Source of the DNA: Xylographa opegraphella
Taxonomy: Eukaryota
Assembly: GCA_022813865.1 (NCBI GenBank)
Contig: JALDZX010000031.1
Span: forward strand, 62,001 to 126,000
Length of the DNA: 64,000 bases
Reading direction: 5' to 3'
Part shown: positions 26,341 through 64,000 of the stretch, one piece after another
How the letters are laid out: every line of letters starts with the position of its first letter
Numbering within the stretch: position 1 is the stretch's first letter
Made by a program: the position numbers and the translations under genes
The notes under the pieces: generated by a model
The model's input: the letters and a program-made list of their open reading frames with translations, nothing else
Databases searched by the model: none
What the model was told of the DNA's origin: nothing

Positions 26341-27600
26341 TCTGCTGCGTTCGATGTTGGCGTCGAACGTATAACATGACTCGTTGTACCAAAATCGGTA
26401 ATTTGTTCTGGGATGTTTCCTGCAAGACGCAATACGGAGACATAAAGTAGGTACCCGGCAATGGCGCGTTGGAATTCGGAAAGAATTTTATTTACTATGA
26501 TACTGACTCTAATACTAATGAGAATAATAACAGTTATGAGATATTTCGTCTCTCCTCTACGTGTGTTGGTACATTAGATGGAATCAAGAGTAAACTTGCA
26601 ACATTAATTCGAGGTATCGTACCACACTTCTTCTTTGTCTGAGCATTGTCTCTTCATCATACTCCTAGTCTTACCATAATCGTGGAGTTTAACAATGCCC
26701 TCGTATATTCTTTGCACCATCCAGCAAGGATAGGAAGTCGATGGTCATCTCAACGTGCGAAGATCCGCGCACAGCTTGGATGGCCGACTACTCCAGGCAC
26801 GAACTACCTCCCTTAACGCCCCGCAACCACAGATAAAAGATATGTATGAAGACCATTGTGGCATTTACCCATTCAGGTCGGCTAGACAACCCTTTGGCTG
26901 ATTTCCACCCAGACCAGTCTTGATCATGGGAGCTAGTACATCTAATTACGGCAAGTTGGTGAACGATACAATGGCTGATAGCATCATGTCGTCCAGCGAC
27001 TGTTCATCGGGTCGTGCCCACAGCTCCGACGATCTCACAATGTCTTCTTGATGTGGACGACGGAAACCTGGCGACTGCTATCACTTTGTGATCTCTCCGT
27101 ACCCAGCAGGGATTCAGAGCAGCACACTGTGAGTGCGTATGAAATTCCGTGTACTTTGGATGAATGGCAATGAAAGGTTGGGCGGCTTGGGTGTCGTCTA
27201 TTTCAGAGTCTCGTAACCACTAGTAGCTGCTCAATCAGAAGTACTTGAAAGTTACTTCCGATAACAGACTGTGGTACTATGATTCGGGGTATGTTGTTTC
27301 AATGTTTGAGAGCTGGGTGAACCAATATATAGATAAAAGTGGGTACATAGTACATGTAAGTATAAATCGTAACCATGATACAGACGCCGCGTTCCTAAGC
27401 CAATGGAATAATTGATGACAACGTCGTGAATATTAATGGCGATACCAGTTAAAAATGATCATAGACTATCACAGTGTATCCTCCCTGAACCGAAACGTAC
27501 TCCCCACTTCTCCCACTTCATCTTCCCTACAAGATATGCTATACTATATACCATCCCAAGATCATTCCAACGCATACGCACTTCTGAAGTCTCACCATCA

Positions 27601-30600
27601 CTAACTATGATACATTGCACCGGGCCTGACGTTCGTAGCCAGGAGTCGCCGAGTAAGTGTAGGACTCAACAGGATGTGTTCCAGAATCGTAGTCGACGCT
27701 TCGCTAGACCCCACGCTGGACGGCTGCTGCGCGGAGCCCGGACGCACCGGCGTCGCAGGGTCGGTGCTGGGTACGAAAAGCGGCGTCACGATTGGGAGTT
27801 CCATGTCTTGGCGTGCGAAGAAAGCAGCCCTGCGGTGGAAGTACCTCGTCGTCTCGTCGTCCAGCTCCATCTCCTCGATGAGATCGAAAACGCTCATCGA
27901 GTCGTCCCACTCGGCAAAGGGGAAGCCACGCGCGCGGAGGTCTGGCAGTCGGTCCGTTCGCATCAACGGTGTACCAGTGCCCAAGCGATCAGCAATCTGC
28001 CTAGCTGTCAGATGACGCCAAACGGGGTCGTCGTGGGTGGCGGTATCAGGGCTGGTGTCCGGCATCTGCAGCGCCTGGAAGTGTGCATGGTGGTTGGCAA
28101 GGCGGAGCAGGCCGGCGCAGAAGCGGACCCAGTGCTGGATCATCTCCCCACTGAGAACCGATTCGTGCTGGCGGAACTCGATCGTGTGTGGTCGGACGGG
28201 CTTGCCCGGCTCATCTTCGAGGTCGGTGAAGTTCACGGCGCGTTCCTTGTCCCCGCCGCTGAGGAATATGAGTCCGCTGAGCAGGCTACCATCTCCGTCG
28301 AAAATGCTCGCACGGACGTCTTCAAGGGGTCTTTCGGTAGCTGGATACGCTTGGTCCGGTGGGGATGCATGATCGTCGGGGTAGTGGATGTTTATGTAAT
28401 TGGAGCGTAGTTCGTTCTGGGCAGTATCGCTGGTGGAGTTGGTGCGTCGATGGTGGGGCATGATGGTGTTGATTTGTTTTTCGTACATTACAAGGATGTA
28501 GAGCAGGTTCTGGAGTGTCTTTTGATCTATGTCTTCATGTGTATGCTTCATGCGGATGTGGAGCCCCGTCTTGGGACCCGCGGTTGCGCCATGCAAATGG
28601 CATGGCTGGCCCTTAAGCCTATTGCATAGGTCGTTGATTTCAGGAAATCCGGTGTCGTCTCTTGTGAGTGTGAAAGCTCTGGAGACTAGCACGGCGCCTT
28701 GAGAATCCCCTAGGCGAGAATGCTGTCAGTAGTCATTATCAGGTAATTGACAGAAATTATACTTACATTCGCTGGTTTGTGGTAGCCTAGCCGGAGGTTC
28801 TGGGCTTATTACCCGGCCTGCTGTCACAGCAGACAGTTTAACTGTTTCATCCACAGTCCTTGGGGGTCTAGACGAAGTAGTCCTGTCTGGGGTTGTTACA
28901 GTAATAAATGAGGTCTGTGCAACTGGCGCAGTTGTATTGGGTTGCCCACTGGTAGCGGAGGTCGTGGTCTGTTTCCATCCAAGAAGAATAGGTGTGTTAC
29001 TGGGGCCGGCAGCCGGAGAATTTGCTGGCACAGTTGGTGATATGCTGTAATCTGGCCTCAGGAAAGGATGAGTTTCTCGCAAGTTCAGAGTGGAGATCCC
29101 GCCAAAGAAGGTGCTTGGTTTCAGATAAAGTGGACCTACAGCGGCCTCCAACCAAATCTTCCTTGCCTCCTGTCCAATAACTGTGACGCGAGCTAGGGTG
29201 TAGTAAAAGTAGAATGCCTCTCGTGGGAGTCCTAGAACGCGGAGGCAACGTATGATTCGCGTGGCTCGGGCATGATAATCTTGCCACTTACTCTGGAAGC
29301 GCTGAATTGCGTGGCTGTAGTCTGCAATTCTTTCAACTGACCCGTGCTCTACTCGTTGAAAGCCGTAAAATTGCCAGATACGATCCAGCAACCGCAATAG
29401 TTGAGATCTTAGGTCTTGCCGAGTATTGAACGCCACAAAGGTCGCCTCATCAACACCCGGCATAGGACCAGAAGAATGAGGCCCATTACCCTCAGGCAGT
29501 GGGAAAAGTGATTTAAAGCAGCGGCCTTCACGATCGAGTCTCTCATCACCCCACTTCAATAAATCATCAAGAGTGCGGTTTTCAGGGTCCCGACCTCTTA
29601 TGTTTGGATCATAGAACTCAACTATCCCGTAAAAATCGTACTTTGTATTTCCAATATAAGGAAGATCACCTTTACTTGAACTCAAACTGTGGTGCCCTGG
29701 ATTAGGGCGCTCCCACCGACCATGTTTTGGCTTATCTATCGGCTGCAAAAGCCTCATGACTGCTTCGAATGACTCCGTCGGGTCAACGTCCACGCTTTGA
29801 TCTTGTACTAAGAGATCAGGACCTAGTGGGAAGTCAAGCAGACTGTGTGAGAAGCGGTTTGGACCCTTCTCAAAGGGGTCCTGAGAGAGGGTGGTCTCCT
29901 GATTTGAGTCATTTGCTTGGGAGGACGATGACATGCTGGCATTACTCCGTATACTGATAGCGCCAGTTGAGTTCGGAGGTCGGTTTTCTTGGTCCGTATC
30001 ATTTGATTGGAAGGACGAAGACATGCTGAAATTGCTCCGTACCCTAAAAGCGCCAGTTGAGTTGGGAGGTCGGTTTTCCCGGTCTGTATCATTCGATTGG
30101 AAGGACGAGGACATGCTGGCATTTCTCCGTGCACTAAGAGCACTAGTTGAGTGGGGAGGTCGGTTTTCCTGGTCGGTATCATTCGATTGAAACGACGAGG
30201 ACATGCTGGAAGGTGATGGTGGTAGTTTTTGCTTCTTTAGCGCGGATCCGCCTGCACCAGACGTCTCTGGTGACAACGACCTTTTGTTGTGCTGCCCAGA
30301 TGTAGGGCCATCTCGTTGAAAGCATCTCTTATAGGTCACTAAGTAGTGCTCGAGCTCAGTTAGTGTCAGAGCTTCGATGATTAATTCCTTGATGAGATGC
30401 CAATTCTCGAAAGTGGTTGGCTTGTCTAAACAGACATCGACAGTAATATCGGACGGCAAGGCCGCGTCCCAGTACTGGAGGTGTTTACTCTGATCTGCAG
30501 ATCGCAGTATCTCTCTTGCCATATGGAGATGTTCGCGTTTGTACGTTCGAAGCTTCCCGTCCGTTGCATATGTGGCCGCAGTACGTTCACGTGTCTCCTC

Positions 30601-30867
30601 TGCACCAACTCGGAGACCCCAAGCTAGATATCGAGGTCTGCTGTGACGGTATACTTGAGGGACTGGATTTAGCTGCATCCGCAATTCAGGAGTGAGGTTC
30701 TTCTTCAAAACCGCAATGATCTGGGCCTCAGTGACTCGAAAATCGGTATTACATATGGTTGGCCTGCCTGCTTCGTGCTCTAATTGCGCGAGGATAAGTT
30801 TTTCATGGAAGACTAGAACGAACTCGATCTCGACCTCATAAGTCAGCTCGTAGTCGGAGTTCTTCAT
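27601..30867 (-). CDS. Amidoligase_2 (COOH-NH2 ligase)-like protein with nested OGFr-like domain and 30-aa tandem repeats (~1069 aa)
   Basis: TYEVEIEFVLVF, WDSQGAVLVS, TGLHIR, AVNFTDL, TIEFRQHES..WVRFC; intron 28710-28766 joins the two long ORFs in frame; internal IVEFYD..RTLDDLLKW..LFPLPE..QFYGF..TRIIRCLRVLG. Confidence 0.8.
29893..30207 (-). repeat. Coding tandem repeat, 90-nt/30-aa unit, ~3.5 copies
   Basis: acatgctg recurs at 29931, 30021, 30111 and 30201; unit SMSSSFQSNDTD(Q/R)ENRPP(H/N)ST.A. Confidence 0.95.
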
Positions 30868-31297
30868 CCTCCCCGTGGCAAATTGATGCCCTCAGATGAT
30901 TACGGCGCAATAGCAACAACGCTAACCCGAGTACCCGTGCACAACTGTGCATGAAAAAGCCATATTTAATGAGCGAAGCCGATGCAGAATATCGGTAAGA
31001 AGGGCATATTATGATAATCAAAAAATCGTTTGCACAAAGACGAAATAATAGAGATGCCATACACATGTCCCTGTTTTCAGATACGCATTGTAGTATACCG
31101 GATGCGGCGAACGCTATCCCAAACATTGCGATAAAGAAAGCAACGTCAGAATCCATCCGCCACAGCTTGCCACCTTGGACATCTTCGAGGATGAAACCGA
31201 AGAGCCGACTGAAATTCTGTTTAAACAAGCAATCGGCCTTTATAGTTTAACCGTGTACATGAAATCGTAAAAACATAACAATCTCACAATGCTCGTA

Positions 31298-33169
31298 TTA
31301 CATCGAAATACATCCGTCCTGGACTCCTTGCCGAATACTCTCTTCTATATCATCCAAATTCTTCTTGGCCCAGAATGACTTGACCCCCTCCACAAACCTA
31401 TGGCTCGTCTTTGACACATCTTCCTCATCCACAGCCGCGAAGCAAAGCCGGAAATAACCCCAGCCTTTATCATTCCTGATTGAATCAGTTGGGCTGAAGA
31501 TAGTTCCCGGGCTGACTAATATCAGATACGGCTTCGTGGTTAGGTGAATCCATAGCGCGTGAGCCAATTTATCGTGGCTGGTCTTTTTGTAAAGGGGATG
31601 AGTAGCAAGCTCCACTTTAACCCATATAAACATACCTCCTAAAGGCCAGATGAAATCATACATGAGAGATTTCTCAACCACGCTCCATTCGTCGGAAATG
31701 CTTTGTCGACGGCCACTCTTGACGAGATATTTGCCTTCTTCAAGAATAGAGCACATTGTCTGCATTCGGCGCTCGTAATTGCCACGCAATCCTTCAAGCC
31801 ACCGTACCCAGCCATGCATTTGCCATCCCTTTCCATCTTGAGCGCCACCGCGACCTTCGTCATTTGAAGGTTGTGGACCCATGATAAGTTCAGCTATCAT
31901 GGATTGCACAAATCCAGAGGGTTGCTGCGTCGACGTTTCCGTGATTCTAAGAAAACGTTCACAGAGCGCTGGCTGAGCTGTCAACCATCCCAAACGACAT
32001 CCAGGAGCAACAGTTTTCGAGAATGTGTCGATACGGACAACTCGTCCCTCTGTGTCGACAGATAAATACGAAGGTACTAGTGAGTCAAGGAACGGGTATC
32101 CGGAGGATTTTGGAGAATTATAGTTGTGTTGGCCGGGTTGAGCATCAGTGGAAGTCGGCTGACCACGTGCAGCCATCGAAGAAGTATTGGCCGAAGGATA
32201 CTGTAAATACCAGTACGGATCGTCCTCGATGATGATAACATCATACTTGACACAGAGAGCATATATATCCTTGCGCCGCTGAACGCCAAGGGTTCCGGAT
32301 GTAGGGTTTTGTCCAATTCTGATTGTGATGTGAGAAATGAACGGCCTCGCTTGAAACACTCAACTTACGTTACTGTGTAAATCAAGTGAGGTCTCTTCCC
32401 CTTACTTTCGTCCCAATTCTCCAAAACATCCTCCAGACCTCCCTTTCCTGATGGTAACATGCCCTCAGTATCAATCGCAACTGGCACAATGTTTAGCCCT
32501 CTTGGCCTGGCTGCTTGTACTGCATTCATATAGGCAAATTCCTCGACTAAAAGGCCTTCTCTGTCCCTGATCCAGTCCCTGTTTTCGATCCATGTGTTAC
32601 TTAATGCCTCGAGAGTTTTCGCAAACCCGTCGGTAGAGCCACATGTCAAAATGATTTCGGGACCTCCAGCATATGGAACATTCGGATGCAGATTTTCTCG
32701 CGTGAATTGCCTGAGAAACGTGTACAAAGGAGGATAGCCCTGTGCTGTTCCATATTGAAGGGCAGATTTGAGGTCAATCTTGCGAAGAACATCAATGCTT
32801 TCCACAGTCCCTGGCACGATCACTCTGGTTGCGGCTGGCTGCTTTGATGAATCATTTTGTTTGTGAAGGCTTGGCGGTGGGTTGACAGGGTGATTTGGGG
32901 TCGGTGCGAAGCGATTGGGAAGAGCAACAGTTGCTTCTAGAGTGTCGAAAGGAAAGTTATGGTTGTTTGGTAATCCTAGAACACGTCAGCTCTAAAGCTT
33001 CAACTTCCCCCGCTAGCTTACCTCCTGCAAGATTTCCTATGCCAGGAATTGCGAAATACTTGTAAAAGTCCTTGATACTACTAGCAGCACGGTTCTTCGT
33101 TACGCGTGAGTAATGGTGAGAAAGGTCAACTGGGGCCTTGATAGAATCCATCACTGGAATAGTGGTCAT
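31298..33169 (-). CDS. PLP-dependent aromatic amino acid/2-aminoadipate aminotransferase (Aro8-like, class I/II)
   Basis: GNLAGG/LP, ALQYG, GQNPTS, IIEDDPY, PLP-lysine motif RIDTFSKTVAPGCRLGW, YFRLCFAA; two introns (~32977-33021 and ~32320-32368). Confidence 0.92.
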
Positions 33170-61200: not shown

Positions 61201-64000
61201 GAGCCGCCGGCTTGACAAGTGCCCAACGTTACATGGCCCAATGCAGGCCGCGGTCTTAGACTTCTCTGGACGACGTGGGCGGGAAGGAATGATGTCGTGG
61301 TAAGGTCCCACGACTATGCGGCCAGGCTGTTCGTTGCCGGTTGCGCGCTTCCCCTCGGCGCGGCGCTGGTGTTTCGTGGCCGCCCCCCCGTTGAGGTCGC
61401 CTCGGCGTGGAGCGGCCCTACGTGCACCTTCTGCGCCGCAGGCCGCAGCTCGCACCGTATTGCGCTTTTGGGTAATGGCATCGACGTCAGGTTCGAACGA
61501 CGGAGCCAGACTGCGGCAGCGTGGACGTTGACGCGCACTGTGTGGGCCTGTTGGAAGCGTACGTGATCGCATCGTGGGAAAGTCGGTGGGCGGAGTCGGT
61601 GCTGGCGGTTGGAGGTCAACGTCGGCATTCCGCACAAGATTTCGCACGGCCGCGCCATCGAATTCCTCAGGGTGCGCCCTTCCGCCACGGGGATGCGAGG
61701 AGCCAAATGCGCGGCAGGCGTTCGTGCGCGGACGGGCAGCAGGTCTTGCTCAAGCTTCATCGGCGCTCTCTTTTGACCTTCCCACTGATTGGTCGCCAGG
61801 AATGCGTGCAGCACTAAGAAGTACCTCTCATGGCCCGTCTGCGACGGAAATTCTCCACTGTGCTGCAGTCGACAGCGCATGATCGAGAATGCCGGACCCG
61901 GTTTCCTCATTCCTCTAATGCCATTGACCAACCACCTTAGCTTACGTCGTCCGTTCTAGGGGTTTTGGGCTCTGCCTGAAGCATTCATTCCACGACCAAG
62001 CAAGGCGAGCACCGTCGCTGTGTCTCTTTTGCTATCTCACACCGCCGGCTCTAGCGTTTCCAGCAGTCCCGCACCACGCGGCAACATGTCGGTGCCACCA
62101 AGGCATGGTCAAGGTTCCATGCCGTCGTCGCAATGATGGGGTGAAACAATTCGAACAAATGGATGTGGAACAGCAGACCATGCCGACGGACGTGTTCGAC
62201 AGCTTGACGCTACGAATGAATAACGCAGACTCCACTCCGTTTCAAGCAGAAGCATAAGTACTCTGTACGGTCTACGCTCTAGTCGCTCCATGCCGTGCCC
62301 TACTCCGTACCTACCGATGCCTGCGGTCACCAGAGGCAATATTGCCTACCGTGGACGGAGTTCGAGGTGGACCGGTTCTCCCAGCTCATCGTCGGCAGTG
62401 TGGCAAGCGACCGCAGCTCATTCGAGCAATTCGAGTCCGCTCTACAACAAGGCAAGATGTTCCTGCCCCCGTTCGAGCACAAGGCAAAAGTGTATCGAGC
62501 CCGATGCAGCGTCTGGGGGGTTTATGCGCGCTTCATCTGATGCTCGCCCTCGTTTGGGGGATTAAGGTTCGCATGACTCTGGTGCGACCCGCGGCCCAGT
62601 CTTGCCTTTAATCCTAGCCGCTGCTGGCTTGGCACACGACGGCGCTGTCGATCTCTTGCCAAGGCTCGGAGCACGGAACTTTTCACAGCGAATCAGTCCC
62701 GACCGTTGACAATCCCAGCTGGATAAGGTAAGGGAAGGGAGTGAAATAATAGGCGGGCTGGATGTCGAAAGAGGAAGCTGCTGCTGATGTGTCAATGGCG
62801 CCGGCAAAACTCCTCTGTTCTCTCGATCCTCTTTCACGCGCATCTCTCGGGGCAACAGTGCTCCGAGCATCACGGTCGCCGGGGACGAAAAGAAAGAAAC
62901 GCACCAAAAGACGGCAGGATACGAGTGCTGGGAGCGGTGCGGGCGCCACCGAGGGAAGGGAAGGGAAGGGGATCCCCCGCTCCTGCTGCGTCACCCCGTG
63001 CTCGACCCCGCAGCGGTGCGAGCAGCGAAAGGCAAAGCTTATCGTCTTTACACTTTCCGCCTTCTCTTCCTCCCAAACCTTTTTCTGTCTGGATCGGTGG
63101 ACGAGGCGCGATGCGGTGGGAGAGACATCGGGCGTGACGGCCGTGGTCGAGCGGTCTGATAGGGCCGGGAACGTCTCGCTCGCCTGCCCGGCGGCGTTTG
63201 ACTTCCCGCCCCCGGTGCCAGCGCGCAGTGGTCAAAGTGCCGATTGGTGTCGTACAACTGGCCGGTCGCCTTACGCGCACAAATCATACGTCACGATTGG
63301 AGGCTCCTGTCTTTGATCACGGAAGCTCTCTCGTCAAACAGGATCGAGCTGGCATCAGGGGAGTGATGCTGAGTCGGAAATGATGCATTGGATCATCATC
63401 GTGGGCAATCACGGCGGTGGGCATGGTGGAGGGGAGCTGGAGTCCGCAGTCTCGAGGCGTCTTCGTCGACGACGGACGACGGACAACTCGACTTCACCTG
63501 CTGGACCGACCCAATCAAGCTGGACTGCTTGTAGGCAGACTGGAACTTTGGGGCCGAGAGCAAGCCACCAGATGCGCCGTCAGCGTGATTGATCTGGCGC
63601 TTCCTGCACGAACTCTCCATCGGGACCGCAATCTGACTACTGAACAAAACTGACTAGATACTAACACATAGATGATCCGTATCGCCGGGCGTCCATCATC
63701 CTCACCAATGCCCGCAAGAGTCGAAGAGCCGCAGGCAATGGCAGGCATGGTATGTCCGTGGAATGTATCTAATATTTGGAATCCAGCGGAGGTACATCCC
63801 TTTAGGACATCCCCCAAGCATCAGCATTCCCTCCCCTCTCAGTACCATCATCCCATCCAACGTCGCCATCCATTCGCCTCCGCCAACAGTGCCAACCGGT
63901 GCGAAGAACCGAGCATCCGGGATCGCTGCACCCAAGCCGGTAGCGAACGTTGCTTGCCCTGCCGAGATCTACCCTCGATACCTTGCCTCGTCGACTCGCT

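Follow-up and report, generated by a model that had tools for sequence, protein, structure and literature searches.

An OGFr_N domain nested in a surface loop of an amidoligase-fold protein of the lichen-forming genus Xylographa

The 64,000-nucleotide stretch of DNA analysed here (the window; positions 62,001 to 126,000 of the forward strand of contig JALDZX010000031.1, assembly GCA_022813865.1) comes from the lichen-forming ascomycete Xylographa opegraphella and carries on its minus strand, at 27601..30867, a two-exon gene in which an Amidoligase_2 protein holds an OGFr_N (opioid growth factor receptor) domain within a surface loop. The gene runs from an ATG at 30867 to a stop codon at 27601-27603. 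Exon 1 (28767..30867) supplies 700 codons and the first base of the codon for Trp701; a 57-nt phase-1 intron follows (28710..28766), and exon 2 (27601..28709) supplies the last two bases of that codon, residues 702-1069 (368 residues) and the stop. A first-pass annotation had proposed that the two adjoining minus-strand open reading frames (ORFs) of the window, 28726..30891 and 27601..28725, are joined into one frame of about 1069 amino acids, and this proved correct: joining the exons in a script yields a coding sequence of 3210 nt, translating into 1069 residues and a stop, which is identical to the NCBI hypothetical protein MMC26_004753 of X. opegraphella (protein P0003 of our set; other proteins are cited by numbers of the same kind). 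The motifs which that annotation had listed are likewise all present where it had placed them. The intron, read from 28766 to 28710, has a GTAAGT donor, a branch-like CTGAC and a TAG acceptor; it lies inside the Trp codon of the WDS motif, cutting it between T and GG, and its removal recreates the family motif WDS.G.(E)LVS exactly. The insert that separates the two ligase halves is coding beyond chance, because its frame contains no stop in 500 codons, whereas the five alternative frames have 21-36 stops apiece. We regard it as confirmed that this is a real two-exon gene and that it encodes a nested-domain protein, Amidoligase_2 with OGFr_N in a surface loop.

The position of the intron is conserved. 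Nine relatives (P0004, P0007, P0012, P0017, P0021, P0022, P0132, P0020 and P0162) are represented in the databases by models that end a few residues past '..E/D-C-K/E/M..', that is, by read-through of the intron, and in X. bjoerkii one gene is split between the adjacent locus tags MMC18_006340 and MMC18_006341. The family thus carries a systematic annotation error caused by its conserved phase-1 intron. Across many lichen genomes predictors truncate, split or mis-splice the gene at the Trp codon of the WDS motif, as seen in N-terminal-half models ending in '..ECK..', in separate models of the C-terminal half, and in X. parallela P0167, which is spliced to 'RDTQG'.

Such disagreement among predictors, with split (P0007, P0011), differently spliced (P0167) and read-through models side by side, is also what would be expected if the nested architecture were itself an annotation artefact, the OGFr block being a separate unit or being spliced out to leave a product like that of X. 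pallens, or the two ORFs being separate genes; the public models are, moreover, all ab initio. The X. opegraphella genome presumably comes from the paper that describes a funannotate-based Xylographa annotation. PMC9098629 describes a gene-model pipeline of this kind, funannotate with Augustus, snap, GeneMark-ES and GlimmerHMM. Against an artefact, the N-terminal half, linker, OGFr block and second linker form one open frame up to the intron, uninterrupted over those 500 codons and matched by a collinear frame in both X. soralifera and X. trunciseda; removal of the intron restores the conserved WDS motif; and the C-terminal half by itself would be without the first strand of the fold. We therefore consider an artefact very improbable.

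The N-terminal half of the amidoligase (30298..30867, residues 1-190) contains the first strand, EVEIEF (residues 11-16, from 30837), and the WHLIKELIIEAL strand, with WHLIKE at residues 156-161 (from 30402). The C-terminal half (27802..28709, residues 701-1003) lies in exon 2, which contains WDSQGAVLVS, GLHIR, AVNF (the VNF motif) and TIEFRQH..WVRFC (the TIEFRQHE motif). With a Pfam cut-off of 22 bits for both Amidoligase_2 and OGFr_N, Amidoligase_2 (PF12224) matches exon 2 at 33.4 bits (E 5.6e-8) over profile positions 110-244 of 245, and it scores 30.8 bits on the whole protein, above the gathering score. A split Pfam match had been anticipated by the first-pass annotation, and only its C-terminal part was found directly: the N-terminal 190 residues have no Pfam match of their own. 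They do, however, align collinearly with residues 1-135 of Lasallia P0025 (BLASTP E 3e-11) and match P0057 (BLASTP E 1e-6), two proteins whose Pfam matches begin at profile positions 2-3; in P0025, residues 8-249 match profile positions 3-152. P0025, annotated as 'Putative amidoligase enzyme' of Lasallia pustulata (SLM37669.1, 436 aa), exemplifies the short-loop fungal Amidoligase_2 proteins. It has the same fold as the window protein and the same motif order (G.E.E, W.l..D.S, WDS.G.ELVS, GLHVH, VN, TIEFRQHE), and the C-terminal halves are about 35-40% identical, whereas its loop from Trp to Trp measures 29 residues as against 544 in the window. The window protein further differs from the short-loop proteins in lacking the Asp and Ser of W.l..D.S and in having Val for Glu and Arg for the second His.

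An AlphaFold2 model of the full-length protein, built on a 38-row alignment, gives most of residues 1-190 and about 690-1000 a predicted local distance difference test score (pLDDT) above 90, the OGFr block 70-90, and residues 192-412 and 581-685 below 50. A search of the ligase against PDB sequences returned no sequence-level match to any solved chain. By structure, the best Foldseek matches of the full model in the PDB were all glutamine synthetases and their relatives, but weak (best E 1.1e-2). Realigned with VIA-align, the structures on Foldseek's list gave Z scores of 12.3-8.5 over 216-275 aligned residues, with alignments spanning the model from residue 1 to 980-1011, and in 50 of the 50 matches listed the target belonged to the glutamine synthetase superfamily (glutamine synthetase, GmaS, YbdK or Dop). 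The alignment ranges and the high confidence of both halves suggest that the two fold together into a glutamine-synthetase-type domain, in agreement with the earlier proposal of an amidoligase fold split by the insert. Glutamine synthetase, GmaS, YbdK (of the GCS2 family) and Dop have their catalytic fold in common with the window protein at sequence identities of 7-13%; among these enzymes we know of none with a domain in the corresponding loop.

The insert replaces the link between the W..D.S and E.VS strands, and both the alignments and the loop lengths confirm this placement, which had been read from the motifs. The spacing from W156 to W701 is 544 residues in the window; among 25 full-length relatives it is 29-34 in 16, 48 in one, 146-155 in four (X. 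pallens, Trapelia and one paralog each in X. opegraphella and X. trunciseda) and 530-551 in the remaining four, namely the window protein, X. soralifera, X. trunciseda and Ptychographa. On either side of the OGFr block the loop is predicted to be disordered. Its first part (29635..30297, residues 191-411; pLDDT below 50) carries a KR..KKQK basic cluster and SSFQSNDTDQENRPP repeats, and its second part (28768..29112, residues 586-700; pLDDT below 50 over residues 581-685) is rich in Ser, Thr and Pro. The 30-residue repeats noticed at the outset are real: Tandem Repeats Finder reports a period of 90 nt, 3.3 copies and 86% matches at 29909..30209, and by motif counts the SSFQSNDTDQENRPP-type units recur in the loops of the orthogroup and in none of the paralogs. 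A linker motif, S-S-F-Q-S-N-D-(S/T)-(D/N)-Q-E-N-x-P-P, is repeated at 29909-30209 and about 30180-30290 (residues 195-330) and is conserved in the loops of Xylographa, Ptychographa, P0022 and P0027 and absent from the paralogs. The KRSLSP...KKQK cluster of the linker has what we take to be a resemblance to a bipartite nuclear localisation signal.

Between the two linkers lies the OGFr_N domain (29113..29634, residues 412-585), all-alpha and degenerate. Scanned by themselves, residues 405-585 match Pfam OGFr_N (PF04664) at 26.8 bits (E 4.3e-6; 26.4 bits in a second scan), a match that was absent when the whole of exon 1 or the whole protein was scanned. A phmmer search of 1.84 billion representatives returned 751 matches at E <= 0.001, which fall into three separate classes: the N-terminal half, residues 415-585, and the C-terminal half. 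The middle class comprises more than 100 free-standing proteins of 200-400 amino acids with 35-45% identity (E 1e-27 to 1e-14), and all 66 of its aligned members match PF04664. The initial identification of the block as an OGFr domain is thus upheld. Modelled alone with AlphaFold2, the module is all-alpha with a pLDDT of 85 and a predicted template modelling score of 0.82. Foldseek found nothing in the PDB at E <= 0.001 for this module (best E 1.1), and the best match of a wide VIA-align comparison, RopB (Z 7.7, root-mean-square deviation 4.8, 136 residues), is within the noise for helical models; a search of PDB sequences gave nothing meaningful and the ESM Atlas no usable match. A predicted complex of the two ligase halves with the OGFr block scored 0.07 against a mark of 0.34 and gives no evidence either way. 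Standalone fungal OGFr_N proteins (Lophium mytilinum BU16DRAFT_529430, Xylaria KAI2631212.1) and the N-terminal region of vertebrate OGFR and OGFRL1 are 31-41% identical to the window block; the standalone proteins, which are free-standing and 200-400 amino acids long, keep HDYIQ and HNH, whereas the window has neither. Binding of the opioid growth factor, [Met5]-enkephalin, has been reported for animal OGFR only.

In the searches made, the nested form was confined to Xylographa: X. opegraphella, X. soralifera, X. trunciseda, X. bjoerkii and the ENA proteins P0004 and P0008. A search with the X. trunciseda OGFr domain among proteins of 570-1815 amino acids, which sees only proteins sharing words with the query, brought up only three Xylographa proteins among 361 candidates, and the window itself contains no second OGFr or amidoligase copy. 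X. soralifera MMC17_005105, X. trunciseda MMC11_000821 and the two-part X. bjoerkii gene share the nesting, the intron and the repeat motif with the window. PF04664 and PF12224 both match the X. soralifera and X. trunciseda proteins, and in X. bjoerkii PF04664 matches P0007 and PF12224 matches P0011. P0008 (456 aa), a Xylographa-like ortholog, ends within the OGFr block ('...NLRSRCCAH'), which may reflect a contig end, a frameshift or a real truncation.

In a tree of 108 OGFr domains, from which the shortened P0008 was left out, the five Xylographa inserts form one clade (SH-aLRT, the Shimodaira-Hasegawa-like approximate likelihood ratio test, 99), so that the insert was gained once. The loops of X. 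pallens MMC27_006626, X. parallela MMC32_007586 and Ptychographa xylographoides MMC19_001529, which share the orthogroup, the intron and the linker motif with the window, hold no OGFr module. In X. pallens and X. parallela the loop measures 147 residues, and the ENA model P0012, which clusters at no less than 90% identity with X. parallela P0167, reads straight through it, so that OGFr is missing from the DNA itself and its absence does not stem from gene prediction. In Ptychographa, the sister genus, the loop is equally long, with 531 disordered residues. No OGFr remnant came to light in the loops of Ptychographa, P0017, P0022, P0027 or the paralogs when HMMER was run with every filter disabled (best score <=0 bits). 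A tree of the C-terminal halves joins X. pallens and X. parallela (100/97) with X. opegraphella and X. soralifera (90/92) within Xylographa (98/98), and X. trunciseda and X. bjoerkii are sister to this group. Most simply, the insert was acquired once, at the base of Xylographa, and later deleted once, in X. pallens and X. parallela.

A second arrangement of the same two families occurs outside Xylographa. P0020 (581 aa) and P0162 (521 aa), two ENA proteins that are 59% identical to each other, consist of an N-terminal OGFr_N domain (about residues 40-180), a Gln/Glu-rich linker and a ligase N-terminal half, and both end in read-through of the conserved intron. OGFr_N is here N-terminal rather than nested in the loop, and the proteins belong to the orthogroup of the window. 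Because their ligase part lacks a Met where other N-terminal halves start, P0020 and P0162 are probably true fusions and not a merger of two genes. A tree of N-terminal halves places them in the Xylographa ligase orthogroup (96/97), with the OGFr-less P0017, P0022, P0027 and Ptychographa lying between them and Xylographa, and the unconstrained OGFr tree sets their domains apart from the Xylographa inserts. A metagenome scan for relatives of P0020 brought up only two short contigs with standalone OGFr genes. Whatever the number of origins, the protein models indicate two architectures in which this ligase clade and OGFr_N are combined. The fusion had been taken to be undescribed. This stands as far as publications are concerned: almost no literature was found on OGFr_N or Amidoligase_2 and none on their fusion, nor did any publication in the literature searched link 'amidoligase' with 'opioid growth factor receptor'. 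As a database entry, however, the nested architecture already exists in NCBI nr, in hypothetical proteins of three Xylographa species, two of them with both Pfam families precomputed. It is a new architecture made of two known families, so far found in one genus and one further lineage.

The copy in the window is degenerate in both of its modules. In the OGFr block we scored the 51 columns whose conservation reaches 85% or more in a background of 100 proteins. Of these positions the background proteins keep a median of 49, X. trunciseda 47, X. soralifera and X. bjoerkii 45 each, the window 39 and P0004 32. The window reads GRCFKSLFPLPE and F...QDYHARATRI where the family has E..HDYIQ.LFPLPE and W...DHNH.R.TRI, so that HDYIQ has become GRCFK, and W..DHNH has become F..QDYH, with QDYH for DHNH. 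The positions lost are the polar ones; the hydrophobic and Arg-rich scaffold is retained. In the ligase, the codon GTG at 28690..28692 encodes Val707 in place of the family Glu of G.ELVS, a residue that 24 of 24 relatives from outside the orthogroup share, and CGC at 28552..28554 encodes Arg753 in place of the second His of GLHVH, present in all 26 of the outside relatives compared and in 8 of the 9 orthogroup members. At position 11 the window has Glu, where 23 of 24 relatives from outside the orthogroup have Gly, and WHLIKELI has Glu and Ile at the Asp and Ser positions of W.l..D.S. The window does keep the acidic residues of the first strand, E13 and E15, as well as H751, N860, T876, E878, R880, H882 and E883 of the VN and T.EFRQHE motifs. 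X. soralifera, X. trunciseda and X. bjoerkii keep HDYI(Q), HNH or HND, and His753, and X. soralifera also Glu707, whereas the window has lost all of these.

Part of this erosion extends through the orthogroup. Of 8 members, 3 still have Glu707, the others having V, G, K, D and K; Glu15 is kept in 9 of 13 and Glu13 in 12 of 13; and the Asp of W.l..D.S, present in 20 of 20 aligned members outside the orthogroup, is replaced together with the Ser in the orthogroup members aligned there. The repeated erosion at residues 13, 15, 161, 163 and 707 concerns the orthogroup as a whole, which comprises the Xylographa and Ptychographa proteins together with P0013, P0014, P0017, P0022, P0020 and P0162. All other family members examined retain these metal-binding Glu and W.l..D.S residues. 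In enzymes of the glutamine synthetase fold, Glu residues on the strands hold the two catalytic metals. Since it is these residues that have eroded, we infer that the lichen ligase clade is no longer under selection for canonical catalysis; judged by its residues, the orthogroup looks like a clade of pseudo-enzymes.

The sequence of events that we propose is as follows, and its history of gain, loss and degeneracy is largely shown. In the lichen-fungal orthogroup that hosts the insert, the loop between the strand-helix of W.l..D.S and the metal-binding WDS.G.ELVS strand had already lengthened from about 30 residues to hundreds, predicted to be disordered. Into this permissive loop the ancestor of Xylographa took up, a single time, a copy of a standalone OGFr_N gene of fungi; the ligase halves would still fold as one domain, with the OGFr module hanging on floppy tethers. 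The insert seems to have remained constrained in X. soralifera, X. trunciseda and X. bjoerkii and was deleted in the lineage of X. pallens and X. parallela, and in the lineage of X. opegraphella it lost its conserved polar motifs. The ligase of the X. opegraphella copy, too, no longer has a metal-binding Glu (now V707) and a conserved His (now R753). The early suggestion of a domain capture fits what is found, a complete OGFr_N within one loop of an amidoligase of the glutamine synthetase fold. The losses at V707 and R753 and the replacement of Glu throughout the orthogroup argue for an impaired ligase-fold binder or scaffold and against a working enzyme with two activities, and we think it reasonably probable, from residue conservation, that the window protein is a catalytically impaired amidoligase-fold binder or scaffold with a decaying OGFr module.

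The pattern of conservation can be turned the other way, toward a working bifunctional or regulated enzyme in which OGFr_N recruits or gates the substrate and the substitutions in the window are tolerated or compensated. Such an enzyme would fit the intact ORF, the retention of TIEFRQHE, VNF, H751, E13 and E15, the 45-47 of 51 OGFr positions kept by the three congeners, the recurrence of the pairing in P0020 and P0162, and the identity between the window and X. soralifera, which is 76-79% in the ligase halves as against 47-58% in the linkers. The OGFr block, however, with only 51% identity between the two species, has diverged to much the same degree as the disordered linkers; X. pallens and X. 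parallela do without the insert; and Glu707 and His753, lost in the window, are invariant in the relatives outside the orthogroup. In enzymes of this fold the strand Glu residues bind the two catalytic metals. On these grounds we hold an active two-module enzyme in X. opegraphella to be unlikely.

Should the OGFr_N copy instead have landed by chance in a tolerant loop, unrelated to the ligase and now decaying or being deleted, the long and disordered loops of the relatives, such as the OGFr-free loop of Ptychographa, would have offered it room, and its loss in two species and decay in the window and P0004 would be the natural outcome. The bacterial loci described below, none of which pairs OGFr_N with an amidoligase as far as a fungal-built profile of low sensitivity can tell, would agree. 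A neutral passenger should not, however, have kept HDYI(Q) and HNH or HND along with most other conserved positions in three lineages, nor does it account for OGFr_N having been joined again, at another position, to two proteins of the same orthogroup that lack a ligase start Met. We consider this explanation quite improbable.

The first-pass annotation had also raised the idea of an integrated decoy or sensor, with the OGFr block as bait for an effector of a pathogen or symbiont and the ligase fold as the signalling part. Only the fast evolution of the insert speaks for it, the path between X. opegraphella and X. soralifera measuring 1.8 in the OGFr tree as against 0.35 in the C-half tree. 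This speed coincides with the loss of conserved polar residues, a pattern that fits relaxation better than an arms race, and neither the protein nor the scanned ORFs flanking the gene contain an NLR, HET, TIR or other immune-type domain. Lacking a supporting domain or context, the idea was rejected as scarcely credible.

Several observations weigh against the reading of an impaired binder or scaffold with a history of capture and decay. The ranges from which one closed domain is read give the first and last aligned residue only, and concern a model. A single mRNA, and the lack of a splice form that skips the insert, are deduced by comparison among relatives, and the public Xylographa gene models appear to be ab initio predictions. 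E11, V707 and R753 each lie one nucleotide from the family codon, so that they may stem from assembly error or strain polymorphism, and the intact 1069-codon ORF, together with the TIEFRQHE, VNF, H751, E13 and E15 that it keeps, may mean residual activity. The window protein sits on a terminal branch of 0.25 in the tree of C-terminal halves and of 0.23 in that of N-terminal halves; this exceeds the 0.08 of X. soralifera but resembles the values for X. trunciseda (0.21 and 0.24), and there is no special acceleration. As to the second arrangement, the fusion in P0020 and P0162 is known from protein models that cover OGFr_N, the linker and the ligase N-terminal half, and the two arrangements may go back to one fusion or to two: the approximately unbiased test does not reject a tree that unites the seven ligase-linked OGFr domains in one clade (p 0.737), and the log-likelihood of that tree is 14 higher.

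The surroundings of the gene add little. It is flanked by genes for an aminotransferase, a major facilitator superfamily transporter, a carboxylesterase, an LCCL protein and a DUF1996 protein, among which no cluster was recognised. The aminotransferase gene (class I/II; 31301-32985, minus strand, in at least two ORF pieces) begins the upstream side, about 430 bp from the ligase start on the same strand; we know of no link between these two genes. GC content at third codon positions is 0.65-0.68 in exon 2 (the C-terminal half and the tail) as against 0.40-0.52 in all parts of exon 1, and exon 2 is overlapped by an antisense ORF on the plus strand (27430-28410, 326 aa) that has no Pfam match and is probably the shadow of this GC-rich frame.

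Bacterial OGFr_N genes were examined in 80 loci, fetched from 407 confirmed stretches. An amidoligase ORF was found near OGFr_N in none of the 80, the profile used having been built from fungal sequences and its sensitivity being low. In 31 of the 80 loci, mostly from metagenome-assembled genomes of Acidobacteriaceae, OGFr_N is followed on the same strand by a gene for an S9 prolyl oligopeptidase, often at a distance of about 50-700 bp; the pairing could be an operon hinting at small-peptide metabolism or plain synteny within one family. Another fusion partner is seen in P0164 (JGI, 417 aa), which looks like a bacterial protein and has a CheY-like receiver domain (PF00072) followed by OGFr_N. 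The Klebsiella CfmP 'amidoligase' is not relevant here, the work on CfmP being concerned with ATP-grasp enzymes.

That the two families are functionally linked, as had been suggested at the start, is plausible but not shown. The one positive argument is the recurrence of the pairing: within this one ligase orthogroup OGFr_N occurs in two different arrangements, which hints that the OGFr_N domain and this ligase clade share a target, acting or having once acted on a common partner or substrate, a proposition that we regard as close to evenly balanced. To our knowledge, no activity has been assigned to OGFr_N since its discovery. A more specific proposal, that the two form a two-module system directed at one peptide-like or amide-linked target, for example with the ligase fold as writer or binder and OGFr_N as reader or eraser, is tentative and on balance rather doubtful. 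In PMC2938197, eukaryotic COOH-NH2 ligases are termed 'chromatin protein amino acid ligases'. Were the two-module proposal true, the two fusion architectures would offer a first genomic clue to what OGFr_N does biochemically, and the bacterial pairing with prolyl oligopeptidases would point likewise to small peptides.

OGFr_N and Amidoligase_2 are both widespread in fungi and biochemically uncharacterised, and a sequence search found no solved structure for either. The recurrent fusion is one of few computational clues tying these two families to one process, and it offers a testable contrast between the X. soralifera ortholog, in which both modules are intact, and the degenerate copy of X. 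opegraphella. The gene also exposes a systematic annotation problem in lichen genomes. Cumulatively, it provides a natural example of a disordered loop in an enzyme fold that accepts, keeps, erodes and loses a whole domain within a single genus.

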